Assembly: GCA_963786255.1 (NCBI GenBank)
Contig: CAWAYY010000013.1
Span: 198,767-262,766, forward strand
Source: Pirellulales bacterium
GTDB lineage: Bacteria > Planctomycetota > Planctomycetia > Pirellulales > JAICIG01
Reading direction: 5' to 3'
Length of the DNA stretch: 64,000 nucleotides
In this document: positions 14,233 through 43,364 of the stretch, piece after piece
Layout: each line of letters starts with the position of its first letter
Numbering within the stretch: the first letter of the stretch is position 1
The notes under the pieces: generated by a model
The model's database searches: none
The model's input: only the letters and a program-made list of their open reading frames with translations
What the model was told of the DNA's origin: nothing
Made by a program: the position numbers and the translations under genes

Positions 14233-14248
14233 GGCGCGTCTCCGACGG

Positions 14249-17200
14249 TCAGCGGATGGAAACGAAGTCATTATGGTTGAGCAGTGCGCGGACCAGCCCC
14301 TCGCGGCGTCGGGCTGCATCTTGACCATTCGAGCCGTTTGCCGGCGCTTCAAGAAACGCCGCACACGCCCGGGATTCCGCCGCGCTGCGGCGCACGCGCG
14401 AGAATCTGCTCGAACGCGGCCATGATGAAGATCTGCCGATCAGCTTGTTGTTCGGGCGGCAGTTGTCGCTGCAAAAGCTCAGCCAAGTGGCCGCTCATCT
14501 CGTGGACCAAGTCGCTGTTGGTCAGCGCCAGGGCCTGTTGCGGCACGACGCTGCGCGTGCGGCGATAACAATCGGCCGGTTCGGGAGCATCGAACAAGGC
14601 GCCGAGCGGATTCTTGCCGTCGATCTTCGGGTTGGCAACTGTAATACAGCGTGCGGCGGTACGTGGTCAGCGCTTCGCTGTTCTCGAGTTCCTGGCCGCC
14701 CATCGCAAAGTCGAGCTTGCCGGCCACGTAGAGCACGCTGTCTCGTACGGCCTCGGCTTCCATGCGGCCGACATTCATCCGCCACACAGCTTGTTTTCCG
14801 GATCGCTCGCGTAACGGGCCGCGTCTCCGATCGAAGAGACGCGCCGGTACGCCTGGCTGGTCGTCAGCAGGCGGTGGATGTGCTTCATGCTCCAGCCCGA
14901 TTCCATGAACTCGACCGCCAGCCAATCCAGCAGTTCCGGATGCGTCAGGCCGGGCGCCATTGCGGCCAAAATCGAAGACGCTCGAGACCAGCGGCGAATG
15001 GAAGTGCCGCAGCCAGATATGATTGACGGCCACCCGGGCCGCGAGCGGGTTTTCGCGGCTCGTCATCCACAGTGCCAACGCTCGGCGCCGGCCCGTGCTG
15101 GTCGTCGGGTAGGTGGGGCCGACGCTCGGATACGTCGTCGCCAAGGCCGGATCGGCGAACGCCGCCTGGGCGATTGTCAAAGCCTCGCGGGCGGCCGCAA
15201 GCTGCTTACTGGCCGCGGCCATTTCTTTGGCCCGATTGGCGTCGCTTGCTGGCTTTGTTTCGGCGGCCGCCAGTGCCTGGTCGTGCGTCAATACGTCCGC
15301 CTCGGCGCGTTTGACGGCCGCTTCGCGATGCCGCTGGCTAGCGACGCGGGAGAGCGCATCGGAGTCGGTATTCGGCGCGGCGTCCATTTCGCTCGGTCTG
15401 CGGCGACGCGGGCTTCGATGCCCGCCATCTCTGCCGCGGCCGCGGCGAGCTTGGCTTCAGCCGCGGCGAGGCGGAGTTCTTGTGCGGCGACCGCACGTTG
15501 TGCTGCGCGGCGTTTTTCCGCAGCAGCGGTCGAGGCGTCGTCGCCAAAAGCGGTTGCAACGACCGACGTGGCGCCCGCCTGGCTGAATGGCGAGATCTCC
15601 CAGCCTTCGATCCCCGCAAGGTCTTGTTGCTCCGCGTAGGCAGGCGGTTCGAAGGTGAACTGTGCGAGGCAATCGGCCTGACCGTCTGCGCTGTCGGGGC
15701 CGAGAATTCTTACAACGTCGATGGCCGCGACGACGCCCGTGCGAGCATCGAAGGAGATCCCTTTCTCCGCATCGCCGACCGGGTTCCAGCCGTTCAGAGC
15801 CACCGGCGTCTTGTCGACCAATAACTTGTCGTCGTTGAGCGAACGGACCGTCAGCAAACAGCGATCAGCCTCGGCTTCCAGCTTCAGCGTCGCCTCGAAA
15901 TGCGCTTGCCCGCCCGCGAAGTCGTAGGCGCCGGCTTGAAACTCCGCATGGCCGCCGGGGCGGTACGCCAGGATGCGTCCCTGGTCGAAAGCGACGAATG
16001 CCGCCGTGAGTCCCTGAACCAAGTCCCGGGCGAGTTGGAAATTGACGTGCGCAGTCTTTCAGGATTCGCAATTGAAACGAGAGCGTGGCGCCGGACTCAA
16101 GCGACTTGAGCATCGCCAGCGGGTTCTGGACCGCGCGTCGCCCGGTCGTCGCGTTCAACAAGAGCGACTGCTTGCCCTCGATTGCTCCGGAACGGCCGCT
16201 TGCCATGGCGGCTCGCGTTGCCTGCGCGAACGCTTGTTCGGCTGCGGTCCAATGCTCGCGCAGCGGAGGCAGCGCCTTCTCGACTTCGCCGCGCGCGGCC
16301 GCCAGTTGTTTTTCGGCGGCGGCAATCTCGGCCCGTTGATCGGAAAGATAGGCGTCCAGAATCTCGGACCGCAGCGCGGGATAGAACGCTTGCCATGAGA
16401 GCGAGACGGGCTCGATCTTGACCGAGTCGCCGCCCAGGAAGGCGGGCAGCGCGGGCGTCATCGTGCCGCGGCTTGTCACCCGGTTCCGCTCGTCGCCGCC
16501 GGTATAGAACCACGTGGGCGCCTCCGGATTCTTGTCGTAGACCTGGACGGCGCCGAGGCGCTGGATCTTGCGGAGCACGCCGCTTTCGTATTGCTGGAAA
16601 GGGCCGGGATCGGCTTCACCCGCAACGCGGTCCTGCCGAATGTTGATCGGCTCGAAAAAGGCTCGCAAACGGAAGTAGTCGTCTTGCGTGATCGGGTCGT
16701 ACTTGTGATCGTGGCAGTGCGCGCAATGGAATGTCAGACCCAGGAACGCCTTGCTCGCATGCTCCACGTTGGCTCGCATCCAGTCGTTCGGATTGAGCGC
16801 GTACCAGTTGCGAATCAGATAGCCGGTCGCGACGGCGGCGCGCCGGATCGTCGGGCGCCAGTCTCGTCGGCGGCCAGCATTGCTCGCACCATCTGGTCGT
16901 AGCCGTGATCTTCGTTGAGCGAACGCACGATCCAGTCCCGCCAGCGCCAAATTTGCGGAGCGCTGTTCCACACGTCTGGCACATGGCGTCGCCCGTACCA
17001 GTCGGAGTAGCGCCATACGTCCATCCAATGCCGCCCCCAGCGCTCGCCATAGCGCGGATCGGTCAGCAAGCGGTCGACAATGGATTCGTATGCATCGGGA
17101 GAACTGTCGGCGAGAAACGCGTGCAGTTCCGCTCGCGTGGGCGGCAGCCCGATCAGGTCGAGATAAACTCGCCGCAGCAACGTCGCTTTGTCGGCTTGCG

Positions 17201-18138: not shown

Positions 18139-18828
18139 ATGAATCCTGAAAAAGCGTTGGATTACGAACCGGGCGTGCTGCGCTCATTGCAAACCAAGGA
18201 GCAGACCAAGGCGTTCTACAACAAGATCGCCAAAGTCTACGATTTGCTGTCGGAAGAGTCCGAAAAGCCGATGCGGGAGTCCGGGCTGAAGAAGTTGGCC
18301 CCTCAACCGGGCGAACGCATGCTGGAGATCGGGTTCGGCACCGGGCATAGCCTTGCCGAGATTGCCAGGGCCGTCGGCCCTGACGGGAAGGTCTTGGGCA
18401 TCGATCTCTCCGATCAAATGGTCGAGCACGCCCAAAAGCTGTTCGAACAAGAGGGGCTGGCCGACCGCGCGGAGCTGACGTGCGGAGATGCGACGCGTCT
18501 GCCGTACGAGTCGGACAGCCTCGACGGCATCTTCTTCAGCTTTACCCTGGAGTTGTTCGACACGCCGGAGATTCCGCAGGTACTGGCCGAGTGCAAACGC
18601 ACGCTGAAGTCGGGCGGCCGGATCGTGGTGGTCGCCGTATCAAAACAAGGCAAGGAAGGCATGATGCGCCGGGCGTTCGAGTGGATGCATCAGCACTTTC
18701 CCAACCTGATGGACTGCCGACCGATTTACGTGCGCGCAGCCCTCGAGGCCGCCGGCTTCAACGTCAAGGAAGCCGAAGTCGAAAGCATGTGGGTTCCGGT
18801 GGAGATTGTGCTGGCCGTGAAGCCGTGA
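18139..18828 (+). CDS. class I SAM-dependent methyltransferase
   Basis: Intact 229-aa ORF, ATG start. Motif I LEIGFGTGHSL, post-I LGIDLS, motif II-like CGDATRLPYESDSLDGIF, LKSGGRIVVV. Confidence 0.85.
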   Translation: MNPEKALDYEPGVLRSLQTKEQTKAFYNKIAKVYDLLSEESEKPMRESGLKKLAPQPGERMLEIGFGTGHSLAEIARAVGPDGKVLGIDLSDQMVEHAQKLFEQEGLADRAELTCGDATRLPYESDSLDGIFFSFTLELFDTPEIPQVLAECKRTLKSGGRIVVVAVSKQGKEGMMRRAFEWMHQHFPNLMDCRPIYVRAALEAAGFNVKEAEVESMWVPVEIVLAVKP

Positions 18829-18842
18829 CCGCGGCCTACGGC

Positions 18843-21800
18843 TCAGCTCGTGTGCTGCTTGTAGTACTCGGCCGAGCCGGTGAAGCCGGCGATCAGGTCT
18901 TCGTTCGTCTTGCCGGCGGCAAACTGCTTGAGCCAATAGTTCAGGCCGTCGGGATCGGCCGCTCGGTGCAGGTAGTGCATGAAGTCGTCGTTGATCCGGG
19001 CCTGTTCGCGCTCGGGGCTGGTCGTAAAGCCGGCGGCCACGTGGCTCCGCGGATCGCCCGCTGCGAGCTTCGCCGTCCAATAGTCCTCGCCGCTGCTGTC
19101 CGCCGTACGTCCTAAGAGCTGGAGATAGACGGCGTCGATCCACTCGACGTCGGTTCCGCCTGCCTGGGCGTAGAATTCATCGGAGGCGATCAGGTCGGCT
19201 TCGAGCCTTTCATCGGTCAACCCGGCGTGCATCTTGGCGGTCCAGTAGGCTACGCCCGCATCGTCGGCGGCCCGCCCCAGGTACTTCAGATACGCGGGAC
19301 GGATGACGAAGTTGGCGTAATACTCGTCGCTGTGCGCGATCGACTTCGCCACGCCGCTGATCGGCGCCGCCGTTATCAAGTTGCTGCACCCAGTGGGCCA
19401 GGCCGGCGAAATCCGGAGCGCGGCCCAACACGTCGAGATAGACCGCCTGCACGTATCGCTCGTGCGCCGAAGGCGCCGTCGCGATCGTTGCGCTGCCGGT
19501 CAGCGTTATCGTTTGGGTTTCGTCAGAAACGTCGACCTGAAAGGCGAACATTCGGCTTTCGGCATACGCATGGCTGCCGACGACGCTGAACGTGCCGTCG
19601 GCGCCCGTAATCGTACCGGCCGATTTGACGCCGTCGCCCCAGTCGATCGTGGCGGTAAAGTCGCCGGCGACGGCGGCCGGGTTGGCGTCGGAGAACGTGG
19701 CGACGGCGCCGCTGAAGGTCTGCCCCACCACCGCTGAGATGGTCGTGGCCGTTGCGGTCAGCGGCGCGTCGGCGACTTCGGCCGAACTGTGTGCCGTGGC
19801 CGTGCTGCCGCCCGTGTCGGCAATCGCCACGTCAACTTTCAGTTGAGCGGCTTCTGCGGCGTACACGTGCATCCCGCTGACAGTAAACGTGCCGTCGCCC
19901 ACGGTCGTTACGGTTCCGGCGCTCTGCTTGCCGTCCCCCCAGTCGATCGCGGCGGTGAAGTCGCCGGCGACTGCGGCCTGGTTGGCGTCGGAGAACGTCG
20001 CGACCGTCCCGCTGAAGGTCTGTCCTTCCACCGCCGAGATGGTCATGGCGGTTGCGGTCAGCGGCGCGTCGCCGACTTCAGCCGTGCTGTGCGTCGTGGC
20101 CGTGCTGCCGCCCGTATCGGCAATCGCCACGTCAACAGTCAGATGAGAGGCTTCTTCCGCATACAGATGCGATCCGCTGACGGTAAACGTGCCGTCGCCC
20201 GCCGTCGCTACGGCCCCGGCGCTCTGGTTGCCGTCGCCCCAGTCGATCGTGGCGGTAAAGTCCCCGGCGACGGCTGCCGGGTTGGCGTCGGAGAACGTGG
20301 CGACGGCGCCGCTGAAGGTCTGCCCCTCCACGGCATTGATGGTCATGGCCGTTGCGGTCAGCGGCGCATCGGCGACTTCGGCCGAACTGTGCACCGTTAC
20401 GCTGTTGTTAGCGCTGTCGGTAATCGTCACGTCGACTGCCAGATGGGCGGCTTCTTCGGCGTATAGATGCATCCCGCTGATAGTGAACGTGCCGTCGCTC
20501 CCGGCGGTTACGGTCCCGGCGTCCTGCTGGCCGTCGCCCCAATCGATCGTGGCCGTAAAGTCGCTGGACTGGGCGCCCGCGTCGGAGTCAGTGAACGTCG
20601 CCACGGCGCCGCTGAATGAAGCGCCTTCGACCGCCGAAACGGTCGCGGAGACGCCCGACAGCGTTACGCTGGCCGGAACGGCAAAGCTCGGTAGGTTGTG
20701 CACGGCGACGTTCGCCCCGCCGAAGGCGCCGGCGAACAGGTCGGCGCTGGCGCCGAGTTGCGAGATATCCGATGCGCTGAGCTGCGGCGTTGCGGTCGGG
20801 ATTGGTCTGAAACGTCAGTTGCAGCGTGGGCGAGCCGGAGGGATTGAACGGGTCGTAGAGCATCGACGAAGCCGTATCCCACAAATTCGTACCCAGCAGA
20901 CCGTCGATGCCCGGCGCGATATCCAGCACGTAGACCGGCACGTTCGTGAACGCTACTTGGCCGCCGTCGCTGGTCGGCAAATCGAGTTCGTCCAACGTGT
21001 AGCCCGGCACGGTCGTAGTTCCGCCCACGCCCTGCACGTCGATGGTGGTCGTGGGCGTCTGTTGATCGAGCCCCAAGGCGTGCGCGGCCGCGGTGGAGAT
21101 CACCGTGAGCTGGCTGCCGGTGTCCAGCAGGAAGTGCTGCTGGCCGACGCTCAGGCTCTGATCGACCAACTGCACGTCCGGCTGCATCGGGCTGGGCGAA
21201 TTGGTGATGGAATCGCCCGGCGCCGCGTGGTTGTCTTCGCCGAACAGTTGCAGCGGAATGGTGACCGGGTCGGTGGTGACTCCGCTCACGCCCTGCAACG
21301 ACGTGCCCGGCGAGACGAAGTGCAGATCCGGTACCGACAGCGTCAGTCCGGGGATCAGGTCGGAGAAGTCGAGCGTGGCGCCTTGAAAATCGATCTTCGC
21401 CGCCGCGCCATTGGGATCGGCCTGCGAGGGATTCAAGATCGGCGTGCCGGTGATGGTGGGCAGGCTCGGGCTGCCCGAATCGGTTCCGACCATGGCCTGC
21501 ACGTTATCGGCTGCGGCGCCGCCGTCCAGGGAGATGGTGAAGACGGGAAAGCCCTGCGCGTCAAACGACAGTCCGGCGGCATGTATGCCGTCAGCCAGGA
21601 TTTGACCTGGGTCGGAGACATCGCCCGTAATATCGCCGCCAATGCCCGATGCCTGGGCGCCGCCGGCGTTTTTGATCGGAATGCCGGAGGCGAGAAACTG
21701 GAAGAGCGTCTGATCGTCCGGCGAGAAAGTGACCGCCGAGGCGCCGGTATCAAAAATACCGAACGTCGTCCGTGATGCATCGCCGTAGGCTTGCACCGTC

Positions 21801-21937
21801 AGGACCTGATCGCCGAATTGATCCAACGTCGCATCGAGCGGAATGGTTAGCGACGTAGGGCTGGTCAACACGCAACGCAGTTCGAGCCATTCGAACCGTC
21901 TCGCCAATCGCCCCTTGCGACGCAAGTCGAAACGCAT
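18843..21937 (-). pseudogene. large secreted protein: two retropepsin-like DTG lobes + 4 Ig/PKD-like repeats + DUF4214 tail (two frame breaks)
   Basis: ORF 20588-21997 has IFDTGASAVTF (D at 21749-21751) and FLLDTGSQLTVIS (D at 21122-21124), 209 aa apart. ORF 19210-20703 has 4 repeats of about 100 aa with ATIDWGDG. ORF 18843-19379 has DUF4214-type YLxxLGRxAD repeats. Joins near 20810 and 19375. Start 21937 or 21997. Confidence 0.7.
19473..20670 (-). repeat. four tandem ~297-300-bp coding repeats
   Basis: Period shown by shadow ORFs starting at 19592, 19889 and 20189. Protein repeats read PLTATAMTI(N/S)AVEGQTFSGAVATFSDANPAAVAGDFTATIDWGDG...TFTVSG.H.YAEEA..L.VDVAIADTGGSTAT.HS.AEV.DA. The central copies are nearly identical. 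Confidence 0.8.
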
Positions 21938-22300
21938 GCCTGGGCCTCCCGGTAAGCGAACTTCGCCCAGAGGAAATGAACACCCGCCATGCGGCAAGCG
22001 AACCGGGCGAAAGCAGACGAGCGATATCCTAACGGCTCTCTATGCGGCAATCCAGTCTTTGATGAAGATCCGCGGCGTGAGCCGACGCCAGGCTGTCGTG
22101 CTGGGTGGTTCGGCGCATCGGACAGACGCGACGTTCCGCCTGGCCGTTACACTGCGCAAAGTTTGACGGGCGTGCCGGGAAAAACACGATCTGCACAGGC
22201 GAAAATAATGACATTGGGGCCCGATTTCAGTACATTGGGCTGCATGCGTTGGCGGCGTCGTCGTTCAATTCCGTCATTCAAGTTGTTTTTCTCTTGCGTC

Positions 22301-23478
22301 ATGACGGAGCTTGTTTTCACCCGAGTCGACGCCGCCTTGATGCTGCTCGACCGGCATCGCGTGCGACGGCGTCAACAGATTCCCGCGCTGAGCGTGGTTG
22401 TCGGCGATCGGGGTGCGCCAGCGAGGCTGGTTCATCGCTGGGCCCGGCTTGCGGACGTGCACGTCTGTGAAAGCACGAACGTCGCTCTCGCTGAGCAGGT
22501 TTCCGACTGGTTCGCTGCGCTGGTTCGCGTGCGCAACTTGCCGGGCCTGGCGTGCGCTTGGCTGGCCCGACGCGCAGGCGTCAGCGGCGGGGAGCTCTGG
22601 CGCCGGTTATGTCATCGTTCTGCACACGAACGTGACTTGTTTCTCAATCGCCTGCTCGGCGAGGCGGACCCCTCGCCGAGCGAGACAGTCTGCCGGGCGA
22701 TCCTCGAGCACAGTTTCGAGCAGGGCTCGACCGTCGTGGGGATGTGGGGTCGCCTGCTCGCCGCCTGTCGCGACGACGTCGGCGCCTTGTTCACAGGCGT
22801 GTCTGCGATCGTCGGCCGAGACGGCGGTCCGGCTCTGTTCGTCAACTTGCCGGCAGAGGCCGGGCTTGATGCTTTCGACGCCGCGTGCACGAATTTAACC
22901 TCATTGACGTCCGTTTCGCCTCGGCTGGCCGCGCTCGTTTCAGTTTCCCCCAAGTTGTTGCAGTGGTATCTTGCACGGGCGCCCAGTCGCACGCATTGGC
23001 GCTGGTGCGCCGAAGGCGTAGTTTCCGCCGCCTGGAACGACGAAGCCTCGGAAGTTTCCACGGGCGAAGGCGCGTCGTCGACGTCGCCGGAAGTATCGGT
23101 AGGGGAACGTGCGGACGCCGACGACGATCCGGCGCCAGCCGGGCGGAACGATATTTGTTCGAGCGGCTGCAAACGCACGTAGAAACGGCCGACCTGTTTG
23201 AACTCAACGGCCGGCTTGCCGCGGCGGACGCTTGGGGCGGCAGCTTGGAGGTCGATTTGCTGTCGCGCGACGTGCAAGTCGCCGTCGAGATCGACGGCTA
23301 CTTTCACTTCAACGACCTGGACGCATACCGGCGAGATCGCCGCAAGGACGTGCTGTTGCAGCAGGCGGGCTATTTCGTGGTGCGCTGCCTGGCCGACGAC
23401 GTCGTGGCGGGATTAGAAGAGATTGTTGAGACCATCGTCGCCGCCGTCCGCCTGCAGCGGGCGCGGCGACCGCAATAG
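22301..23478 (+). CDS. candidate system gene A: unknown N-terminal domain fused to DUF559/Vsr-like (PD-(D/E)xK) endonuclease domain; one frame break near 23140
   Basis: ATG 22301 (MTELVFTRVD; alternatives 22208, 21989). About 280 aa without a recognisable motif, then a switch into the ORF 22885-23478 frame: SRAERYLFERLQ...EVDLLSRDVQVAVEIDGYFHFNDLDAYRRDRRKDVLLQQAGYFVVRCLADDV. EIDG at 23287-23298. This fits the DUF559 pattern. Confidence 0.6.
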
Positions 23479-23492
23479 CAGGAGCAGCCGTT

Positions 23493-24499
23493 ATGATTTT
23501 CGGCGTCGCCGCCGTCGACCTGGAGACGAGCGACCAGTTGATTCTGGCGAGAATGCTTTTTTCCGCCACACCGTCGAAGGCGCGAGATGACGTGGGCAAG
23601 ATCGCCGCGGCCCGGCTCAGTTCCGGCGAATGGGCCGACGCCTTCGACTCGCATTGGCGCCGGCTTGTCGAGGCAGGCATGCTCCGCCCCAAGTCGAGCG
23701 GCAAGTCCGGCAAACCTGGCAAGACCTTCGAGCTGACCGAGGAGGGGCGGCGCCGGGTTTGCGAGTTTCTGCAACTGGATGAAATTCCCCCTCGGCTCAC
23801 CTGGGCGAAGCTGCAGACCGATTTCTTGTTGCCGCTGGCGATGAACGTGCGGCCGGGAACCCGCGAGGCCGAGCAACTCAAGAGGGCCGCGTCGCTGCAG
23901 CGTGCGGTGATCGTCAGATCGAAGGGGCTGGCGCCGCCCGCCGGCGGCACGATCAAGCAGGTTCTCGGCGCCTTGGCGTGGAAGCTGATCGGCGTGGAGT
24001 GCGACGCCGATTTCACGGCCGAGAACGTGATTCAGCAGTTTGTCTTCCGTCAGAAGCCGGCCAGAAAGCTCACGACCGCACGCGTCGCAGCCGCCGTGGC
24101 GGCGGCGGCGGCGGGCGCGCGGACCCATTCGGCGCCCGAGCTGCGGTTGTCGGTCATTCGCCAATGGCTGCTTCAAGCGGGAGGCGGCGAAGCGGCAGCC
24201 GGCGCGCCGACCTGGCCGCGTTCGCCGAGCACGTCTTGAACGCGGCGCGCCGGTTGCCCGCTGCGAGCCGATTCGGCGATAACAAGGTTTTTATCTCGCG
24301 CGTCTGGCGGAAGCTGGCGGAAGAGAGGATGCTCGGCGGGCTTGCACTTGAGCCGTTCAAACAGCGGCTGGTAGAGGCGAATCGCGAAGGGCTGCTACGC
24401 CTGAGCCGCGCCGATCTGGTGGAAGCCATGCCGCCGGCAGACGTCGAGGAATCGGGAACCGCGTACGAAAACGCCACGTTTCATTTCATTCGTCTTTGA
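23493..24499 (+). CDS. candidate system gene B: hypothetical ~335-aa protein, possible winged-helix; one frame break near 24190
   Basis: ATG 23493 with AGGAGC upstream, 14 nt after the gene A stop. Frames join as ...QWLLQAGGGEAA|ADLAAFAEHVLNAARRL. Possible wHTH segment KTFELTEEGRRRVCEFL. C-terminus FGDNKVFISRVWRKL...ENATFHFIRL. No family recognised. Confidence 0.5.
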
Positions 24500-24516
24500 G
24501 GCAGGAGCTGTTAGAG

Positions 24517-25695
24517 ATGGCATCGGCTGCAATGGCGGCGCCTCGGCGCTCTTCGGACTCGACGGATCCTCGCGTGCGCACGTTCAGCTCGCCGCTGGGA
24601 CGAGAGGTGTTCCATTCAATCTGCCATGCAAAGGAGATTGGCACTCCCGACCCGTTCGACGTGTGCTCCATTCACGCCGAAGCCCGCGACGTTTTCGAGG
24701 CCATGATCGATCGCAGCACCACCCCGCCCGGCACGCCCTCGGGACGTACGTTGCTGCTGCTCGGCGAGTCGGGTAGCGGCAAGACGCACTTGATGCGCGC
24801 CTTTCGCAACTACGTCCACGGCCGCGGTTTGGGTTACTGCGGCTACTTGCAGATGACGACGCCCACGCACAACTACGGGCGGTATATCCTCTCCAAGCTG
24901 CTCGCGTCGCTCGATGAGCGTTACGACGAGCCAACCAACCAGCTCTCGGCCCTGATGTGTCTCTCCAACGCCTTGGTCGACACGCTGGGGCCTGACTATG
25001 CGTCGGTCGTCGACTGCATGCGCGAGGAGCGATTCGGCCAGGAAGAACTGAACGAGCAGGTCCGTCGCCTGGCCAACGACATCCTGGAAGATTGGGGGCA
25101 AAGAGGGGCGGCGCTGCGTGACGTCGTGCGCGCCATGCTCTATTTGCAGAAGCAAGATCCGGCGCCGTGCGCCGCCGTTCACAGCTACCTGCGGTGCGAA
25201 GACCTGGGCCGGCACGACCGCGCGGCGCTGGGAGACATGGCGCCGCGGAACGACGACTCGCACCCGATGGAGATGATCGAGTCCTTGGGCTACTTGATGT
25301 GGGCCGCACACAGGCGTCCGCTGGTGCTGTTCGTGGACCAGTTGGAAGATATGTATAACCTTCAAAACGCCGCGGAACTGTTCCGCCGCGCGATCGGCGC
25401 GGTCAACACGGTGGCGGAGAACGTGCCGTCGTCGGTCATCGTCGTGGCGTGCCTCGAGGACTATTACGAAAAACTGAAGTCGTCGTTGGCGCAGTCGCTG
25501 GTCGACAAGATCGAGCGTGGTCCCGACAGGTTGCGTCTAGAGAGCCAGCGTAACGAGCAAGAAGTGCTCGATCTGGCGGCGACCCGGCTGGCCGTGCTGT
25601 ACGAAGACGCCGGCGTGAAGGTCTCGCCCGACGATCCGACGTTTCCGATTCCGACCGAACAGTTGCGCCAGCTTCGAAATCTTCGCCACCCGTGA
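24517..25695 (+). CDS. candidate system gene C: P-loop NTPase (AAA_16/AAA_22/ORC-like style)
   Basis: ATG 24517. TTG 24496 would overlap the gene B stop. Walker A LLLLGESGSGKTHLMRAF (GESGSGKT = 24763-24786). Walker B LVLFVDQLED (25321-25350). Family cannot be fixed by eye. Confidence 0.65.
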   Translation: MASAAMAAPRRSSDSTDPRVRTFSSPLGREVFHSICHAKEIGTPDPFDVCSIHAEARDVFEAMIDRSTTPPGTPSGRTLLLLGESGSGKTHLMRAFRNYVHGRGLGYCGYLQMTTPTHNYGRYILSKLLASLDERYDEPTNQLSALMCLSNALVDTLGPDYASVVDCMREERFGQEELNEQVRRLANDILEDWGQRGAALRDVVRAMLYLQKQDPAPCAAVHSYLRCEDLGRHDRAALGDMAPRNDDSHPMEMIESLGYLMWAAHRRPLVLFVDQLEDMYNLQNAAELFRRAIGAVNTVAENVPSSVIVVACLEDYYEKLKSSLAQSLVDKIERGPDRLRLESQRNEQEVLDLAATRLAVLYEDAGVKVSPDDPTFPIPTEQLRQLRNLRHP

Positions 25696-25696
25696 C

Positions 25697-27675
25697 GTGC
25701 TCGACTGGTGTCGCCGGTTCCAGGAGCAGTTTCGGACGCAAGGAACCGCTTCTCTGCCGCCCCGGCCCGCGAGGCTTCAGGCCGCGTCGTTCGAAGCCGC
25801 CGAGTTGGAAGAAGCGTGGCAGACGTTCCTTGCCGAGGGACAGTGGCAGACGCCGGTTGACGAGGCTCATTTCGCGCAAACGTTGGCCGCGGCGATTGTG
25901 CGATGCAACGACGAAGCGCCGCCCGCAGGCTTCGCCTTCGAGGCGACGTGCGACGATCGCTTCGTGGCACTGGAGATCCATGGTCCGGACAACGAGGTCG
26001 AGAAGATCCTCGCCGCCGTTTGCAACAAGCGACCGCAAGGAAACGGCTTGGCCAAACAGATCGACGAGTTGGAGCAACGGGCGGGCGAGCACGGCAGGTT
26101 TATCGTTCGATCGGTCGAGTTTCCGTCGAACCCGGCAGCGAAAATCTCCGCGCAGTTGGGCGATTTTATCATGCGCGGCGGACGCCGGGCGGTGATCGAA
26201 GATTCTCAGTGGCGCGCGATGCTGGCCTTTGAGGATTTTCGCCGCGATCGCCAAGAGCATCCTGCCTTCGCCGCGTGGCTGCGGGAGGAAAAGCCGCTGA
26301 CGCGGCTTGCGCCGCTGCGCGAACTATTGCAATCGGATCGCCGCCGCACGGCGGCGCCCCCGGAGAGCGACGAACCCTCGGCTGGCGGCAATGACGGAAA
26401 GGGCGGGCCGATCGCTGCGCCCGCCGAGGAACGCGCCGCCGCCGTTGCGTCGCCCCTGCGGCTCGGCTGGACGATGGGATTGAGCCCCTTGCCCGTCGAA
26501 ATAGGCGCCGACGAGCTGACGCGGCACGCGGCGTTTCTCGGCGGTTCGGGCAGTGGCAAGACGACCGTGGCATTAAACCTGATCGAGCAACTCCTGGAAC
26601 GCGGCGTGCCGTGCGTGCTGGTCGATCGCAAGGGAGATCTCTGCGGCTATGCCGATCCCGACTGGTGGAACGCGCCGGCCGCCGGCGAAAGCGACTCGGC
26701 GCGCAAACGCGCACTGCGCCGGCGAGCGGAAGTCTCTCTCTATACTCCCGGCAACGCGGGCGGCAGGCCGGTCAGGTTGACAATCGTGCCGGCGGGTATG
26801 AGCGAAGCCAAGGAGTTCGATCAGTTGGCGAGTTCTTCCGCGGCGGCGCTGGGGAGCATGATCGGATTGAAGGCCGAAACGAGGCACGCCCCGCTGCACG
26901 CGATCTTGCTGCATGCCATCCGGCAACTCGCCATCTTGCGGCCGCACCACGAATCGGGCGTCGAACATCTGGTCGAGTTGATCGACTCGTCCGATCCCCG
27001 GCTGGTCAATGCCCTCGGCAAGCTCGACAAGAAGCATTTCAAGAAAATCGTCGAGGGGCTGGAAACTTTGCGGCTGACACGCGGCGAGTTGTTCTCCCCG
27101 ACGGCCGAGACGCTCGATTTCGACTGCTTGCTGCACCGACCAGCGACGGAAAGACGCGGCTCAGCATCATCAGCACCAAATTCCTCGGCGAAATGCTCGA
27201 CGTGCAGTTCTGGGTTGCGCAGTTCCTGAACGAACTGCGGCGCTGGGCCAGCCGCAACCCGTCGAGCGCGCTACAAGCGGTCGTGCTGTTCGACGAGGCC
27301 GATATTTACCTGCCGGCCCGCTCGCAGCCGGCCTCGAAGGCGGCGATGGAAGATCTGTTGAAGCGAGCCCGCTCCGCCGGCATCGGCTTGTTGTTGGCCA
27401 CCCAAAGCCCTGGCGATCTTGACTACAAGTGCCGCGAGAACATTCGCTCCTGGTTCCTCGGTCGCATCAAGGAAAATACGGCCATTGCCAAGTTGAAGCC
27501 GATGCTGGATGGCGCCCGCTACGACGCCGGCGCCAAGCTGCCGGCGCAGGCGCCGGGCGAGTTCCAACTGGTGCGCGATGGCGAACTGGCGCCGTTGAAG
27601 GCCGATCGCTCGCTGATGCAGACCGAGCAACGCGCTGAAGATGTCATCTTGCGATTGGCGGAACGGGGAGCGTGA
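25697..27675 (+). CDS. candidate system gene D: HerA/DUF87/DUF853-like ATPase with ~280-aa N-terminal extension; frame break near 27133; possibly fused to gene C
   Basis: First codon is GTG, 1 nt after the gene C stop. RHAAFLGGSGSGKTTVALNLIEQLLERGVPCVLVDRKGDL (Walker A 26540-26566). After the join LDFDCLL|APTSDGKTRLSIISTKFLGE: Walker B VVLFDEAD (27280-27303), LLLATQSPGDLD, FLGRIKEN. Confidence 0.7.
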
Positions 27676-27681
27676 TGTCGC

Positions 27682-27737
27682 CCCGGCTTCACGGTGACGA
27701 TTGCAATGCCTAAGAATTTAGGTATGCTGAAGCCGGG
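27682..27737 (+). terminator. nested hairpin after gene D
   Basis: CCCGGCTTCA (27682-27691) pairs with TGAAGCCGGG (27728-27737). Inner CCTAA-GAAT-TTAGG. Starts 7 nt after the stop at 27675. No clear T-tract. Confidence 0.3.
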
Positions 27738-27777
27738 CGTCTGAACGACATGAGGCATTTCATCGCGGAGCACGAAG

Positions 27778-28791
27778 ATGAGTCGCAAAGGCTTCACGCT
27801 AGTCGAACTGCTGGTGGTGATTGCAATCATCGGCATATTGATTGCCCTTCTGCTGCCTGCCGTGCAAGCAGCCCGCGAGGCGGCGCGGCGCTCGCAGTGC
27901 TCCAACAACATGCGGCAGATGGGCATCGGGCTGATGAACTACGAATCGTCGGTGAAGAGGCTGCCGCCGTCGATCGTGCTCAATGGTTCGGGAAGCACGG
28001 TCACTTGGAACGGCGGCTGGAGCGTGCTAGCACGCATCTTGCCGTACATGGAGCAGTCGAACTTGTTCGCCCGCTGCGATTTCAGCGTCAATAAGGAAGA
28101 GCCCGCCAATCAGCCGGCGATTAGCCTGAACCTGCCGGTCTATATCTGCCCCAGCATGATCAATACTGAAGTTTCAACGCACGATTACGGCCGCTCGGGC
28201 GTCACGGGTTATGGCGTGTGCATGGGCGATTGGTTCATCTGGGGCGGCTTTGGGGGACAGAACAACCGCAGCGCATTCGGTCCCAACCGGAGCCGCGGAC
28301 TGAACGAGCTGACAGACGGTTTGAGCCAATCGCTGGCCATCTCCGAAGTCAAGAGCTACCAGCCGACCTACATTTGCGATAATGCTCAGCTTTCGCAGGT
28401 CAACAACCCCAACAGCATTCCGCCCCCGTCGGCCGATTATCTTTCCGTCGCGCCGGAGTATCTGGGCGGATGTCGGTTGTATGCCTTGGGGCACACGGAA
28501 TGGTCGGACGGCAATTGCCATGCGACCGGTTTTACGACCGCCTGGCCGCCCAACTCCGTCACGCTCGGCACGCCCGACTTGAGCATGGACATGGATTTGC
28601 AAGGGGCGAACGAGGAACAAGGCGGACCGACGTTCGGCGCCATCAGCGCCCGCAGCTATCATCCGCAAGGCGTGAACGTCATGATGGTCGACGGCAGCGT
28701 CCGGTTCGTCAACAATGGCGTCAATGGCATCATCTGGCGAGCGCTGGGCACCGTGAGCGGCGGCGAAGCGGCGCAACTCAGCGACCTGTGA
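27778..28791 (+). CDS. DUF1559 protein with prepilin-type N-terminal cleavage/methylation motif
   Basis: [53 protein letters not shown]-terminal H-x9-DG-type motif region ([19 protein letters not shown]). Confidence 0.9.
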
Positions 28792-28858
28792 GTCTCGGGG
28801 GCGTCGAACGCCCGGCATCGGGGAGCCGTTTGGATCTTCGCAAAGGAAAGATGGCCCC

Positions 28859-29926
28859 ATGTTCGCCCACAAGCTCTTCCTTCCAAAACGTGCGCTGTCC
28901 CAGGATGGCTTGCCGCGGGCGGGTTTGCTGGCCGCGGCAATGATCGCGCTCGCCGGTTGCACGCCGCGATACGAGCGCGAAGTGATCGTCTATGCCGCGC
29001 TCGACGCCGAGTTCTCCCGGCCGATATTGGAGCAGTTCGAACGGCAAACGGGCATTGTCGCTCTGCCCAAGTTCGACGTCGAATCGACCAAGACGGTCGG
29101 CCTGACGCAGGCGATCATCGCCGAAGCGAACGAACCTCGCTGCGATGTTTTCTGGAACAATGAGATTCTGAACACCTTGCGGTTGGAGCAGCGAGGCTTG
29201 CTCGAGTCCTATCGTCCGAAAAACGCCGACGATTATCCCGAGATGTTCCGCTCTGCGGACGAAACCTGGCACGGTTTCGCCGCTCGAGCCCGCGTGCTGC
29301 TGGTCAATACCGAGGCGATGTCCGAAGACGAGCGGCCTGACTCGATCAAGGATCTGGCCGACGAGAAGTGGCGAGGCCGTTGTGGGTTGGCCAAGCCGCT
29401 GTTCGGCACGACGGCCACGCACGTCGCCTGCCTGTTTGCCGAGCTCGGGCAGGAGGAAGCCGCTGGGCTGTTTCGCGACATGAAGGCCAATGACGTGCAG
29501 GTCTTTCCCGGCAACAAGCAAGTGGCGCAGGCGGTTTCGGCCGGCAGCATTGCCTTCGGCCTGACCGACACCGACGACGCCATTATCGAAGTCGAGGCGG
29601 GCAAACCTGTGGCGATTGTCTACCCGGATCAAGGGCCCGAGGGCCTGGGGACGCTCTTCATTCCCAACACGTTGGCGATCATCAAAGGCTCGGCCAACGC
29701 GGCCGCGGCCCGGCGGCTGGTTGATCATCTGTTGACGCCGGAGACCGAGATCCAGCTTTCCAGAGGCGCGAGCGCGCAGATTCCGCTGAACTCGAAAGTG
29801 GACGTGCCGCTGCGCGTCGAAACGCCCCGCACGGTGAAATCGATGGACGTCGATTTTGCCGCCGCCGCTCAACAGTGGGACGCCGCGGCGCGGTTCGTGC
29901 GGGATACGTTCGCGCGCGTCGATTGA
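28859..29926 (+). CDS. extracellular solute-binding lipoprotein (Fe3+/AfuA-like ABC substrate-binding family)
   Basis: Lipobox LAGC after a hydrophobic signal. VIVYAALDAEFSRPILEQFERQTGI...CDVFWNNEIL...HGFAARARVLLVN. No permease or ATPase genes adjacent. Confidence 0.75.
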   Translation: MFAHKLFLPKRALSQDGLPRAGLLAAAMIALAGCTPRYEREVIVYAALDAEFSRPILEQFERQTGIVALPKFDVESTKTVGLTQAIIAEANEPRCDVFWNNEILNTLRLEQRGLLESYRPKNADDYPEMFRSADETWHGFAARARVLLVNTEAMSEDERPDSIKDLADEKWRGRCGLAKPLFGTTATHVACLFAELGQEEAAGLFRDMKANDVQVFPGNKQVAQAVSAGSIAFGLTDTDDAIIEVEAGKPVAIVYPDQGPEGLGTLFIPNTLAIIKGSANAAAARRLVDHLLTPETEIQLSRGASAQIPLNSKVDVPLRVETPRTVKSMDVDFAAAAQQWDAAARFVRDTFARVD

Positions 29927-30106
29927 CAATTGGAAGCGGAGTGGTAGTTTTTATGGATTGCGTCTCTGACGCGTACCGAGCTGAAGCCAGCCTCTGCCGC
30001 CTTCTTGCGGCGCCAGCAATGCTCGGATGTTTGCATCGCTCGTGCAGGTGGCGGAAGCACGCCTCGCCTTGGGCCCTGAACTTTGACCTCAACCTTGGGT
30101 CGTACC

Positions 30107-31384
30107 ATGATGCGTTCTGGAGATTCTTGTTCCGCGCACTTTGTGGGCAATTGCAGTCTGCTGCGCACCGGCGGCCTGGTCCTCGTGATGATTGGCTGTT
30201 GTCTCGCGGCTCCGCTGCGGGCAGAAGCGAGCGACTGGCCCGGCTTTCGCGGCCGAGGAGACAGCAGCGCCCAGGCGGAGTTGCCGCTAACGTGGAGCGA
30301 CGAGGCGAACGTGGGCTGGACGTGCGACTTGAAAGGCTACGGCCAATCGTCGCCGGTCGTCTGGGCAAAGCGCATCTTCGTCACGTCGGCCGAGGGCGAG
30401 AACAAGGAAACGCTGGTTGTCGCCTGCATTGCGGCCGACTCGGGCAAGACGTTGTGGCAAAAAGAAACGCCTTCATCGTTGCCGGCGAGAGCCACGGACT
30501 ACATTAGCCGCGGCGCTCCCACGCCCGTGGTCGACGCCCGCGGCGTTTATGCGTTTTTCGAAAGCGGCGATTTGCTCGCGTTCACGCATGCGGGCGAGCC
30601 GCTCTGGTCGCGCGACCTGGCCAAGGACTATGGACCGATCGAAGGCAATCACGGACTGGGCGGTTCGCCGGCCCAAACCGAGGATACGGTGATCCTGCTG
30701 GTTGCCAACTCAGGCCCGTCGTACCTGGCGGCTTTCGACAAACGCACGGGCGAAACCGTTTGGAAGCAGGACCGTGAGGCCCGCGTTTCCTGGAGTTCGC
30801 CGATCATTTCGCCAGGACCGAACGGCCTGCATGTTTTTGTCAGCTCCAACGGCCTTGTGCAAAGCTTCAACGCGAAAACGGGCGCCCTGCGCTGGGAGGT
30901 TCGCGGGCTCGAGGGCAACACGGTCGCTTCCCCCAGCGTCACGGCGGAGACCGTGCTGGTCGGTTCGAGCCAGGCGGGTAACAATTTGTTGATCCGCCGC
31001 GGCGGCGAGGGAGACGTTACCGAAACGCACGTCGCCTGGCGAGTGGACGAGGTGTCGTCGTCGTTCGGTTCGCCCTTGGTGCATCAAGGCCGCGCTTATT
31101 TCGTCAACAAGACGGGCGTGGCGTTCGCCGTCGACCTGCAGCAGCAGAAGCTGCTGTGGAAACAGCGGCTTCCGGATTCGACCTGGGCCTCGCCGATCGC
31201 CAGCGGCGATCGGATCTATTTCTTCTGCAAGAACGGAGAAGCGGTCGTCGTCCGGGCTGCGGATTCGTTTGAAAAGTTGGCCGAAAATAGCCTGGAAATC
31301 GACGACCGCGTCTACGGGGTTGCCGCGGCCCGCGGCGGATTTGTGATTCGCAGCGGCAGCCGGCTGACCTTCATTCGCCCTTGA
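30107..31384 (+). CDS. PQQ-like beta-propeller repeat protein (BamB-like fold)
   Basis: ATG 30107 (the track start 30083 is TTG). Signal peptide, then repeated W-containing blades: DWPGFRG, TLWQKE, PLWSRDL, TVWKQD, ALRWEV, LLWKQRL. Confidence 0.8.
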   Translation: MMRSGDSCSAHFVGNCSLLRTGGLVLVMIGCCLAAPLRAEASDWPGFRGRGDSSAQAELPLTWSDEANVGWTCDLKGYGQSSPVVWAKRIFVTSAEGENKETLVVACIAADSGKTLWQKETPSSLPARATDYISRGAPTPVVDARGVYAFFESGDLLAFTHAGEPLWSRDLAKDYGPIEGNHGLGGSPAQTEDTVILLVANSGPSYLAAFDKRTGETVWKQDREARVSWSSPIISPGPNGLHVFVSSNGLVQSFNAKTGALRWEVRGLEGNTVASPSVTAETVLVGSSQAGNNLLIRRGGEGDVTETHVAWRVDEVSSSFGSPLVHQGRAYFVNKTGVAFAVDLQQQKLLWKQRLPDSTWASPIASGDRIYFFCKNGEAVVVRAADSFEKLAENSLEIDDRVYGVAAARGGFVIRSGSRLTFIRP

Positions 31385-31524
31385 CTAGCTTGTCTTCCTT
31401 ATCCAGTCTTGCCGGGCGTTCTTCGCCAGCACGACGTATTTGCGCTCCCCGCACTTTCCTGAAGCGAGAAGCGGCAAAAAACTGACCTGCGTATCTGCTT
31501 GCGGCCGAAATAGAAGGGCGACCG

Positions 31525-32310
31525 TTGACGCCCGTTCTCTCGCTTCAGTTGAATGCTGGCGCCCAAGGCGCCTCCGAGGAGACTGATCTCGTGGCTGTTT
31601 CAAGCGTTGTTTCCACGCAAGCGTATCCGTCCACTAGCAGCGCTCAGACCGCTACGTCAGCCGACGGGAGCGACTTTGCTGCAATCCTTGCCGCGGCGCA
31701 AGCCAGCGGCGAAACGGCCGCGCAGCCTTCGCGGTCCGCTGCCTCACAACCGAGCGCAGCAGCGGACCCAAACGCGTGGCTCGATATGTCGGACGGCAAG
31801 GGTCTTGTCAACCTGGATGATTACTTCACGCCGAAAACAGGGTTCAACTTCGACGATCCCCATTCATTGCCGCCCTTGCTGCTTCCATCGCCCGGCAACA
31901 TCGAAGCATTGTCGACCCATGCTGCGGCGAATTTCCGCCAGTTGCTGGCGGACAGCGGAATTCCGGCGGCGCCGTCAAAGATTACGTACGGGGCGGACGG
32001 GAAGGCGCAGTTCCCAAGCGATTACGCATACGCCGATCAACTCAAGCAGGCGCTAGCAGGCGATCCGGCTATGGCACGCGAGCTCAGCACCGTCAACGCG
32101 CTGACGAGTCATTTTGTGGAAATGAAGAAGAGCCTGCCCTTCCTGCAGGCCTACGAAGCGGCCGGTTCGCAGCAGGAAGCCGACGCCGTCGTTGCAAAAT
32201 TCAGCTACCTGTTCAACAACCAGCGCCCCACGTCTCAAATCGCCTTGCAGTTCTCCGCCGATGGCTCTTTGACCGTCACCGCCGACGGCAAACCCTACGA
32301 CGAGGCCTGA
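31525..32310 (+). CDS. hypothetical protein (Ala/Ser-rich N-terminus)
   Basis: 261-aa ORF with TTG start. No recognisable motif. Called on coding-like composition and length only. Confidence 0.35.
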   Translation: MTPVLSLQLNAGAQGASEETDLVAVSSVVSTQAYPSTSSAQTATSADGSDFAAILAAAQASGETAAQPSRSAASQPSAAADPNAWLDMSDGKGLVNLDDYFTPKTGFNFDDPHSLPPLLLPSPGNIEALSTHAAANFRQLLADSGIPAAPSKITYGADGKAQFPSDYAYADQLKQALAGDPAMARELSTVNALTSHFVEMKKSLPFLQAYEAAGSQQEADAVVAKFSYLFNNQRPTSQIALQFSADGSLTVTADGKPYDEA

Positions 32311-32479
32311 TCGAACGGCGGCGGGTTGCTACGTAACGTCCTGTCAGCGAATGCGACGCCAGAACGCAGCTCGGCGTCGTACACGCCGGAATGGTATCCC
32401 ACATTTACGGCCTCTCGATTAAGATCCATCGGGGGCATGGGCTGGGCGGCGTGCGTTGAGGCACGGTCAAGGTGCATGG

Positions 32480-33707
32480 ATGGCGTCTACAATCATGGTG
32501 GATGTTGCGATCTTTGGCGGCGGAGTCGCCGGGTTGTGGCTGCTTGATGAATTGCGACGTCACGGGTTTTCCGCCGTGCTGCTGGAAGCCGGTGAGCTGG
32601 GCGGTGGTCAGACCATTGCTTCCCAAGGCATTTTGCATGGCGGCGCCAAGTATGCCGCTGTCGGGCATCGTCAGTCGCTCAGCGCAGGAAGTGCGCGATA
32701 TGCCCGGGCTGTGGCGCGACTGCCTGGCGGGAAGGCGCGAGCCGGATTTGTCGCAAACCCGAGTCCGGTCGCCGCATTGTTATCTTTGGCGCACTGGATC
32801 GCTCGCTTCGCGGCTCGGCATGCTGGGCGCTCGTGTCGGCTTGCGCGTGGCGCCGCAGCGTGTCGATCAAGCGGACAGGCCCGCGCTGCTGGCGGGCTGT
32901 CCAGGCATGGTCGCCCGGCTCGACGAGCAAGTCATCTCCCCAGCGGATCTCCTCGCGAACTTTCTCCAGCGCAACCGAGAACGGATTCTGCAGATCGACG
33001 CCGAATGCGGCCTCGAGTTCGAACTCTCCGCCGTCCGAGTCGATGCGATTCGACTGCGGCATCCGGCAACCGGAGAGCCGCTCGTTGTGCGGCCGCGGCG
33101 CGTCGTGCTGACGGCCGGCGCCGGGAACGCGCGCCTACGCGAACGCTTGAGTCTGTCAACGACCGTCATGCAGCGACGACCGTTGCACGTGGCGCTGGCA
33201 AGAGGAAAGCTGCCGCTCTTCTCCGGGCACTGCGTCGACGGAGCGGAAACTCGCATCACGATCACCGCCGACGCTGATTCGGCGGGGCGCGTGGTTTGGC
33301 AGATCGGCGGGCGGCTTGCCGAACGGGGCGTCTCGCTCGACGGCGCCGAGTTAATGCGATTTGCCAGGACCGAGTTGCTCGCGGTGCTGTCGGGGCTCGA
33401 CTTGAGCGAAGTCGAGTGGGCGACTTACCGGATCGATCGGGCGGAACTGGCCCGCGTCGGCGGCCGCCGTCCGGATACGGCGCAGATCATCCAGGAGGGG
33501 AACGTCATCACCGCCTGGCCGACCAAGCTCGTACTGGCGCCGAAACTGGCAGAGCGCATCGTCGCGCAATTGCCGCCCCCGAACCTGGCGACGGATGCGC
33601 GGGCGTGGGGCGACTGGCCCCGCCCCAAGGTCGCCCTTGCTCCTTGGGAAGCATGCACAAGCTGGCAACGACTTGGGGAAGATTCCTTACAAAGCGAGGC
33701 GGCGTGA
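32480..33707 (+). CDS. FAD-dependent oxidoreductase (one frame break near 32655)
   Basis: N-terminal dinucleotide-binding motif [52 protein letters not shown] in the ORF 32456 frame. The remainder is in ORF 32472-33707 (VVLTAGAGN..., [14 protein letters not shown]). Confidence 0.7.
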
Positions 33708-34501
33708 TGGCGATCTGCAATCGCAGTTTCGGCGTTTCGGGATTGACTGTCAGCCCAATTGGGTTCGGGGCGTTCAAGGTCGGCCGGAACCAGAAGACCA
33801 AATATCCGTCGGCGTACGACCTGCCGGGCGCCGACGCGAGCGGGCGCCTCTGAACGCCATGCTGGATCTGGGCGTGACCTATTTCGATACGGCGCCGGCT
33901 TACGGTGTGAGCGAAGAGCGGGTCGGCGCGGCACTGGCCAGGCGTCGTCACGAGTTTGTGCTGTCGACCAAGGCCGGCGAGACGTTCGTCGACGGCGTCT
34001 CGACGTACGATTTTTCGCGCCTGCCATCCATGCCAGCGCGCGTTGCAGCTTGGCGCGGGTGAAGACCGACGCCGTCGACCTGTTATTCCTGCACGCGCCG
34101 CGGACGACCTGCAGGTATTGAACGAAACCGACGCCGTGGAAGCGCTGCAGGAATTGAAAACACAGGGGCTGGCGCGAGCGATTGGGTTTTCGGCGAAGAC
34201 GCCGGCGGCCGCGCTGCAGGCCTTGGACTGGGCCGATGCGTTGATGGTGGAATACCATCTTCACGACCAGACGATGGCCGGCGCGATCCAGCAGGCCGCC
34301 CAGCGCGGCGTCGCGATCGTCGTGAAAAAGGCGCTGGCCTCCGGGACGTTGCCGGCGGCCGAGGCGCTCGAATTCGTACTGCAGAACCCGGCGGTCGCGA
34401 GCATCGTGATCGGAACGCTCAATCTCGATCACATGCGAGCCAATCTTGCGATTGCTGGGAAAACGAGACGCGGCGTCACGGATAGCTCATGTCGAGCTTG
34501 A
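33707..34501 (+). pseudogene. aldo/keto reductase, at least 3 frame breaks
   Basis: ATG 33707 overlaps the upstream stop (GTGATGG). Pieces in different frames: [14 protein letters not shown]; [25 protein letters not shown]...VLSTKAG; [14 protein letters not shown]; AVEALQELKTQGLARAIGFS...IVIGTLNLDHMRANL. Confidence 0.75.
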
Positions 34502-35279
34502 ACGCGTTTTTGTCGGGATACATGTCGCGCACTGCGGCATCCCAACTCAGCGTGTTGGCGTGGCCGTCGAGATACAGGTAGTTCGCGGCGGCGTTGTGCC
34601 GTTCGTAGGCGATCCACGGCTGAATGATGTTCGTGCCGAGCCAGATATCGTAATCGTCCTGTCGTGGATCTTCGCCGCCGGCCACCGTGAAAACGTCGGC
34701 GTTGCGTTCAGAAAAGGCCACGAACTGCGACGTGCCGATTTCCATGCTGAACCTTTTGAGCGACCAGAAGCCATAACGCCGCGTCTTGTGGCTCAACAGC
34801 GAGTTCATCAAGTAACTGGTGCGGTGTTCGATGCCGTCAACCTGCCCGGTATCCGGATCGACGAACGGCTCGCGCATTGAAGGATCGTCGCTGCAGCGGT
34901 AGACCTCTTCGGTGGCGACCCAAATGCCTTGCCTGGCCAGTTGTTCGTTTGCCTCCTGACTGCCGCCGATATACGGCATCAGCTTGTCTTCCCAGTAGAT
35001 CTCCGCGAAAGAGTTGCTCAGCCCCACGTTGGAGATGACGTCGGCGTCGAACGGATGGTGCAGGAAGAAGTATTCTCGCCAGGCGTTGTAATACTGGTGC
35101 ACCCCGATGCCGATCTGACGCTGGTGCGACAGGCAATCCATCCGCCGCGCCGCTTCGCGCGCCATTTGCACGGCCGGCAGCAAAAGCGCGATCAGCACGC
35201 CGATTACCGCGATGACGACCAGCAGTTCGACGATCGTGAAGCCGGTGCGTGCGGGCCTGCTGTTCCGAATTGAATTCAT
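34476..35279 (-). CDS. DUF1559 protein with prepilin-type N-terminus
   Basis: [52 protein letters not shown]-terminal [15 protein letters not shown] motif. Intact 267 aa. Confidence 0.9.
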
Positions 35280-38051: not shown

Positions 38052-38274
38052 GACATTTGTGAAGTAGACAAGCAGAGTACGAATGCAGATTTTTCGGGAC
38101 TCGTCATTTCGCCACATCAGCCATCAGGGCATGACGGTTGAAGGTCGTTCGCCCTGAGGCGGATATCATTCGCGTCCGCATCGTCATTGACTGCGGGAGC
38201 GGTTGAACGCGTGGGTGTGATCGCGCGACGACGGGCCCGGACGACGCCAAGCCAGGACAAGGGAAATCCGCCAC

Positions 38275-43285: not shown

Positions 43286-43364
43286 GGAATCGCTACGCCG
43301 GAAGGGACGGCGCCGTTGTAAGTCGGGAGCCTTGATCTTTTAACTTGGGGACGAGCACGGGCTG

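Follow-up and report, generated by a model that had tools for sequence, protein, structure and literature searches.

A dual P-loop ATPase and its closest described relatives

Proteins with a HerA/FtsK-type P-loop core, conserved Walker A and Walker B motifs and a nuclease-type partner encoded alongside them are known from the HerA-NurA, SIR2-HerA, DUF4297-HerA and TdpAB complexes. Here, we describe an ATPase gene that shares these features, located within a 64,000-nucleotide (nt) stretch of a Pirellulales bacterium genome (GenBank assembly GCA_963786255.1, contig CAWAYY010000013.1, positions 198,767 to 262,766 of the forward strand), which we refer to in full as the window. The gene lies at 24517..27675 on the plus strand and encodes a dual P-loop ATPase of about 1052 amino acids (aa), with an open reading frame (ORF) that is stop-free once repaired and homologues of up to 77% identity. 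Owing to two 1-nt insertions or deletions (indels), gene calling in the window divides this locus into three pieces, namely gene C (392 aa), gene D (510 aa) and a tail of 160 aa. We consider it highly probable that genes C and D are a single gene, that the breaks within it are long-read consensus errors and that the gene ends a conserved cassette in which it follows two further genes, A and B.

Compared with the HerA-partner complexes, which matched the C-terminal module in Foldseek searches with E-values of 2e-12 to 1e-8, the protein differs in that only the last ~400 of its 1050 aa are HerA-like, following a STAND-like module and a middle domain, and in that its partners are a DUF559 protein and a ~330-aa protein rather than NurA, SIR2 or DUF4297. 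DndH/DptH of the DndFGH system is likewise a large multi-domain protein with a C-terminal HerA/FtsK-like ATPase encoded in a three-gene operon, and the DndH C-domain (7es4) gave the best target-normalised fold match (TM-score, 0.66); however, sequence similarity was negligible (PADLOC DndH E = 0.04) and genes A and B matched neither DndF nor DndG. Escherichia coli YjgR, of the DUF853 family (Pfam HerA_C), provided the best sequence match of a solved structure to the second P-loop (11kk, 9.7e-9, PDB profile), and some database copies of the present family bear the label 'DUF853 family protein', but the match spans only ~50 residues at Walker A, and YjgR is a protein of ~500 aa with one ATPase module that lacks the N-terminal 640 residues. 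The strongest PADLOC match was that of MADS mad8 to the HerA-like module (2.5e-21, 230 of 314 profile positions), whereas no other mad genes were adjacent, genes A and B had no mad matches, a match to mad3 covered the P-loop only (1e-3) and the window yielded no sign of a methyltransferase motif. Finally, the N-terminal module resembles the STAND/AAA_16 (ORC-Cdc6-like) switch NTPases, scoring above the Pfam gathering thresholds for AAA_16, AAA_22 and, marginally, nSTAND1, but here it carries no repeat-type sensor domains (TPR, WD40) and is fused to a motor ATPase. Each of these comparisons failed on the partners or on a score threshold, and we therefore do not claim membership in MADS, DndFGH, HerA-NurA, SIR2-HerA or DUF4297-HerA.

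An AlphaFold model of the ATPase, computed as a monomer (mean predicted local distance difference test score, pLDDT, 85), contains three confidently folded parts joined by low-confidence linkers at aa 411-423 and 610-641. The first is the AAA_16/AAA_22/nSTAND1-like P-loop module with its helical arm (aa ~15-410, 24559..25748, plus strand; pLDDT ~85-95), which carries Walker A GESGSGKT at 24763-24786 (aa 83-90) and Walker B VLFVDQLE at 25324-25347. Its Pfam scores were 45.7 bits for AAA_22 (cut-off 27), 45.4 for AAA_16 (cut-off 32.6) and a marginal 30.3 for nSTAND1 (cut-off 27.1), and GESGSGKT, D274 and E277 were invariant in an alignment of 26 sequences, all of which places the module among the AAA_16/STAND NTPases. 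The second part is a middle alpha/beta domain (aa ~424-609, 25787..26344, plus strand), confident in the model and marked by the conserved motifs CNK..QGG, VRS..FP and GGRR.V.EDSDWR, for which no Pfam or PDB sequence match was found (aa 421-612). An inactive restriction-endonuclease-like core was considered for this domain, based on its alpha-beta-beta-beta-alpha-beta order, and is not claimed, as it has no conserved catalytic D/ExK set.

The third part is the C-terminal ATPase module (aa ~645-1052, 26450..27672, plus strand), recognised by Pfam, PADLOC, PDB profile and Foldseek alike. It contains Walker A GGSGSGKT at 26540-26563 (aa 675-682) and Walker B VVLFDEAD at 27280-27303 (aa 922-929), with G675, G678-T683 and D926-D929 invariant in the same 26 sequences. 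Pfam scores were 41.7 bits for HerA_C (cut-off 22) and 40.9 for DUF87 (cut-off 23.2), each with partial profile coverage, whilst Foldseek aligned HerA (4d2i/9x1m) over 405-480 columns at E ~1e-12 (best E 2e-12), with further matches to DndH-C (7es4), SIR2-HerA, DUF4297-HerA and TdpAB. Walker motifs, profiles and fold agree, and the module belongs to the FtsK-HerA superfamily. Judged by sequence profiles, the ATPase is not a HerA orthologue, its NCBIfam equivalog scores lying far below the cut-offs (HerA_Thermprot 21.7 versus 800, HerA_antiphage 18.4 versus 800, helicase_HerA 12.7 versus 970).

One gene interrupted by two frame breaks

The first-pass annotation, made from the sequence alone, had suggested that genes C and D might form a single ~1050-aa protein with two different P-loop modules, and homologues encoded as single polypeptides support this. 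A database search with the repaired, fused model returned 617 matches, the best 120 of which were nearly all 1035-1100 aa in length and covered 98-100% of the model at identities of up to 77%, the shorter homologues among them being a few fragments on short contigs. A single ORF spanning more than 900 aa was present in 80 of the 84 loci surveyed, and a further three were cut at contig ends. Homologues consistently encoded as two separate genes had been named as the outcome that would count against fusion, and none of the 84 loci was split at residue 392, so that no natural two-gene variant of the family was found among them. On the evidence of these homologues, C and D together make up a single gene. 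The sole other interrupted copy among these loci, a Verrucomicrobia metagenome-assembled genome homologue (L007:9974-13144), carries a stop codon in frame at residue ~670, just 5' of the second Walker A, a site that differs from that in the window.

Across the junction, homologues read ...LRQLRNLRTRDVLDWCRRFQEQYR... (...NLRTRDVLDWC...), with R392 invariant and L395 nearly so in the 26-sequence alignment. An alignment to the Sll1717 family (NCBIfam NF047389) also crosses the junction (aa 75-428), although its score of 25 bits lies below the curated cut-off (75 bits). In the predicted structure of the fused protein, residue 392 falls outside the linkers and opens a confident helix (391-408), the element that closes off the N-terminal module. 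The architecture had also been called unusual, which holds for its type but not for its frequency: it is neither rare nor new to databases, where full-length entries run to hundreds. A relative is encoded in at least 248 species-representative genomes, and the dual P-loop architecture is present in at least six phyla. The fused family has already been deposited many times, uncharacterised, under generic names ("helicase HerA-like domain-containing protein", "DUF853 family protein", "AAA family ATPase").

Within the window, gene C starts at ATG 24517 in frame 1 and ends after 392 aa (...LRQLRNLRHP) at TGA 25693-25695, whilst gene D is read in frame 2 from GTG 25697 to 27229; the first-pass positions of this stop and GTG are borne out by the sequence. 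Frame 2, said to be open for at least 25 codons upstream of the GTG, has no stop from 25619, which is 26 codons 5' of it. The sequence at 25680-25700 is TCTTCGCCACCCGTGACGTGC, and removing a single C at 25686 (CGC[C]ACC) gives the translation ...LRQLRNLRTRDVLDWCRRFQEQFR, so that the fused sequence predicted from the loss of one C equals that of homologues at the junction, where GTG 25697 is the conserved Val codon of RDVLDW. A second break, suspected at 27125-27140, is indeed present as one base lost at 27135/27136, downstream of which the conserved C-terminus is encoded in frame 1, to TGA 27673-27675. With both edits (one C removed at 25686, one base added at 27135/27136), the locus becomes a 1052-aa ORF with zero internal stops.

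Related assemblies were reached through the protein records of the window. Exact matches to its gene C product (392 aa), its gene D product (510 aa) and a 248-aa truncated gene B product are present in a protein collection, all from one 821,911-bp contig. Clusters of these entries at 90% identity pointed to two sister assemblies, L085 (ENA ERZ25039495, contig_52131; 98.4% identity to the window across 17 kb) and L086 (ENA ERZ25039500, contig_38646; ~88-91% identity). We aligned the window, L085 and L086 with two short-read contigs, L003 and L001, over 5.4 kb. At the first frameshift site (25685..25688, plus strand), the extra C (CGC[C]ACC) that creates the gene C stop is contained in CGCCACCC at 25683-25690, the version without it being CTGCGCACCCGTGAC. 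L086, L003 and L001 are in frame here, reading CT(T/G)CGCACCCGCGAC, and L086 yields a 690-aa product (...NLRTRDVLDWC...) intact across the site. L085 reads CTGCGCCACCC, in a GCGC context, and the window reads CTTCGCCACCC (CTTCGCC), so the two assemblies disagree at this position. At the second site (27133..27138, plus strand), one base (CTGC-ACCGACC) is lost in the window alone: L085 and L086 read CTGCGCCCGACC and CTCCGCCCGACC, respectively, against CTGCACCG at 27132-27139 of the window, and L085 is intact across the site, with a 659-aa product ...DCLLRPTSDGKTRL.

Frame-breaking indels of 1-2 nt were frequent throughout the aligned 5.4 kb, with four to five private to each of the window (23010, 23136, 24205 and 27136), L085 (22535, 23074, 24576 and 25114) and L086 (22515, 24113, 24667, 26720 and 27046), and two shared by the window and L085 (22985 and 25686). 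None occurred in either short-read contig over the same interval. Of these 15 indels, 14 sit at GCGC. In the longer 17-kb alignment of the window (18709-35677) with L085, 58% of 62 indel events lay within about 5 nt of a GCGC, compared to 15% of random positions (P = 8e-15), and about 34% of GCGC sites were discrepant between the two assemblies. All 12 substitutions separating the two copies of the ATPase gene were GCGC-adjacent and the other 842 codons were identical, indicating that the window and L085 represent the same genotype and that GCGC sites are error hot spots. Furthermore, the repaired gene contains zero nonsense codons, and its ratio of nonsynonymous to synonymous substitution rates (dN/dS) against relatives (0.10-0.20) is the same as that between intact orthologues. 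It is almost certain that these breaks arose as errors of the consensus and that they reflect neither a pseudogene nor a two-subunit variant.

Systematic errors are known from nanopore sequencing. This background, together with the Flye-style 'contig_N' names carried by the L085 and L086 records and the very long contig, underlies our attribution of the breaks to long-read error, the most likely cause being methylation-linked basecalling error at modified GCGC. The pattern hints at modification of GCGC in the source Pirellulales organism; the window itself showed no C5-methyltransferase motif. Inflation of coding sequence counts by indels has been documented in Flye assemblies of nanopore data (PMC11649196).

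Two points weigh against consensus error as the explanation. Both the sequencing platform and the methylation of GCGC are inferred from contig naming and the error pattern, and the extra C at 25686, with the stop following ...NLRHP, is also present in the independently assembled L085. The latter would be expected were the +1 insertion a genuine strain mutation, leaving either a recent pseudogene or two polypeptides (gene C of 392 aa, and gene D from GTG 25697), and the spacing of stop and GTG, 1 nt apart, is like that of translational coupling. We nevertheless regard a real mutation as unlikely, given that the shared insertion occupies a GCGC context at which the two assemblies disagree (CTT/CTG) and that a third of such sites are discrepant between them, whilst the other shared indel, at 22985, adjoins private indels in gene A and all remaining differences in the ATPase gene are likewise GCGC-adjacent. 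The junction would also separate two polypeptides within a conserved helix that offers no linker, the proposed start codon is the conserved Val codon, gene D is itself broken in the window and unbroken in L085, and neither nonsense codons nor a changed dN/dS accompany the supposed loss of function.

Far less probable, to the point of being negligible, is programmed +1 ribosomal frameshifting at ...CCG UGA C..., which would fuse C and D in vivo. A zero-frame stop with an open +1 frame does reproduce the geometry of prfB-type recoding, but a slippery CUU-U-like motif is absent at the site, a shift at the stop would produce RHPD instead of the conserved RTRD, and the homologues examined are all read through this position without one, the close relatives L086, L003 and L001 being in frame. 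Frameshifting would moreover leave the 27136 break and a dozen other breaks in the window unexplained. That an AAA_16 ATPase (C) and a HerA-like ATPase (D) are naturally separate genes that merely abut, as their deposition by gene callers as distinct proteins might imply, is just as remote, being refuted by the survey of 84 homologous loci and opposed by the D frame itself, which encodes conserved residues continuing C upstream of the GTG and would otherwise start mid-helix in the N-terminal module. With the break best explained as a motif-linked sequencing error, there is no biological question of split versus fused in the source organism. The deposited 392-, 510- and 160-aa 'proteins' are pieces of one gene, and the GCGC-linked pattern provides a concrete repair rule for the window assembly and its sister assemblies.

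A conserved gene cassette and its possible function

Directly 5' of the ATPase gene, gene B (23493..24499, plus strand) encodes a partner of ~330-335 aa and occupies the same position in 76 of the 84 loci. It is broken in the window by the 1-nt deletion at 24205, repaired here, and is intact (335 aa) in L085. No Pfam match was found for its product, and all database names read "hypothetical"; its structural model (pLDDT 88) gave weak winged-helix-like fold matches (E ~0.1). Gene A (22301..23478, plus strand) precedes gene B, and its product of ~392-400 aa bears at its C-terminus a DUF559 domain, of restriction-endonuclease fold, which is detected in intact orthologues at 2e-7 to 1.7e-12. Three indels (22985, 23010 and 23136) disrupt the window copy and were likewise repaired here. 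Gene A was found 5' of gene B in about 35 loci, spanning Planctomycetota, Myxococcota, Cyanobacteria, Nitrosomonas and Thiorhodospira, whilst the genes flanking the cassette differ between lineages.

The ATPase is one of a large family in which two different P-loop engines are conserved under purifying selection and paired with the ~330-aa gene B product: a single polypeptide with both nucleotide-binding sites conserved, a HerA-like C-terminal fold, tight linkage to gene B and frequent linkage to a nuclease-fold gene. STAND NTPases are generally known to behave as switches, and the solved HerA-nuclease complexes recovered in the fold search provide the analogy for a ring motor. By this analogy, the C-terminal HerA-like module would oligomerise into a ring-shaped nucleic-acid motor, and the N-terminal STAND-like ATPase could gate this assembly, serving as a switch or sensor that depends on nucleotide. 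The product of gene A, or of a nuclease gene swapped in for it such as GIY-YIG, would be the effector, with the gene B product a putative DNA-binding or adaptor subunit. Overall, the cassette might constitute a HerA-partner-type, nuclease-coupled motor system for defence or DNA processing, a model that as a whole we put forward as plausible, with somewhat less than an even expectation that it is right.

Several observations weigh against this functional model. Hyphomicrobiaceae loci contain gene B and the ATPase gene with no nuclease gene detected, and the GC content of the cassette is that of the host. The flanks showed no clear enrichment in known defence genes, with PADLOC returning only generic kinase and AAA matches among 100 flanking ORFs, and no partner or flanking gene matched a named defence system. 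In the literature on HerA-, DUF559-, AAA_16-, YjgR/DUF853- and nSTAND-type proteins, we found no experimental work, description of the architecture or system name.

More tentatively still, the cassette could represent an undescribed nucleotide-driven nuclease system distributed across phyla, in which a covalent fusion unites a STAND-like switch and a HerA/FtsK-type ring motor. If so, a single polypeptide would both sense or gate and translocate, and the nuclease working with it could be exchanged (DUF559 upstream, a downstream GIY-YIG in Planctopirus, none detected in Hyphomicrobiaceae). The family is a reasonable candidate for characterisation as a HerA-partner variant, and its discovery is not unique to the window; the remaining interest of the locus lies in a widely conserved, uncharacterised cassette and in the GCGC-linked error signature, which can help in mending the assembly.

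Individual loci varied in partner and copy number. In Planctopirus hydrillae, a 315-aa GIY-YIG protein (L064:13121-14065) is encoded 4 nt 3' of the ATPase gene and the DUF559 gene is absent upstream, an arrangement that points to nuclease module exchange, with GIY-YIG in place of gene A. Chondromyces apiculatus DSM 436 carries two B-ATPase pairs on separate contigs (L022 and L028). Among Polyangiaceae, the ORFs flanking L011, L027 and L032 agree in size and position, and those of L011 encode kinase-AAA_16, YcaO and WD40 proteins. The Nodosilinea locus was considered as a GC-anomalous island and rejected, the GC content of the cassette there agreeing with that of the left flank and, generally, of the host.

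Other broken genes in the window

Single-base breaks had been described as occurring all over the window, and this description holds, with further cases at 20785, 22985, 23010, 23136 and 24205 and in genes for a UvrD-like helicase, KdpD and KdpA; genes A and B, kdpD, kdpA and the helicase gene are thus broken in the same way as the ATPase gene. The UvrD-like helicase gene (35723-38064, plus strand) is frameshifted at about 37.1 kb into ORFs 35723-37192 and 37078-38064, with positions 3-110 of the UvrD-helicase Pfam profile matched in the first and 209-264 in the next. The kdp operon lies on the minus strand (40564-43339, 44121-46232 and 46225-47973), where KdpB looks intact and KdpD is read in two frames (ORFs 43339-41570 and 42450-40564) with a break at about 42.1 kb. 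Within KdpA, a stretch at ~47344-47500, with GCGC near both ends, is out of frame, and the N-terminus is garbled. GCGC also occurs in the intervals that contain the breaks of the UvrD-like gene, kdpD and kdpA, which is expected by chance given the interval lengths and is consistent with the pattern above but nothing further.

Upstream of the cassette, a large minus-strand gene (19213-22039) encoding aspartyl-protease and DUF4214 domains contains the frameshift at 20785, as well as internal tandem repeats of ~300 nt at 19.6-20.6 kb, whose alignment is ambiguous between assemblies. A PAS-HisKA-HATPase ORF (10487-12226, plus strand) overlaps a response-regulator ORF in another frame (12144-12575, plus strand), and the pair may be a broken hybrid kinase. 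Lastly, a DUF1501 gene (12739-14439) is intact and has a lone C-terminal PSD1/DUF1553 fragment (14352-14666, minus strand) upstream of it.

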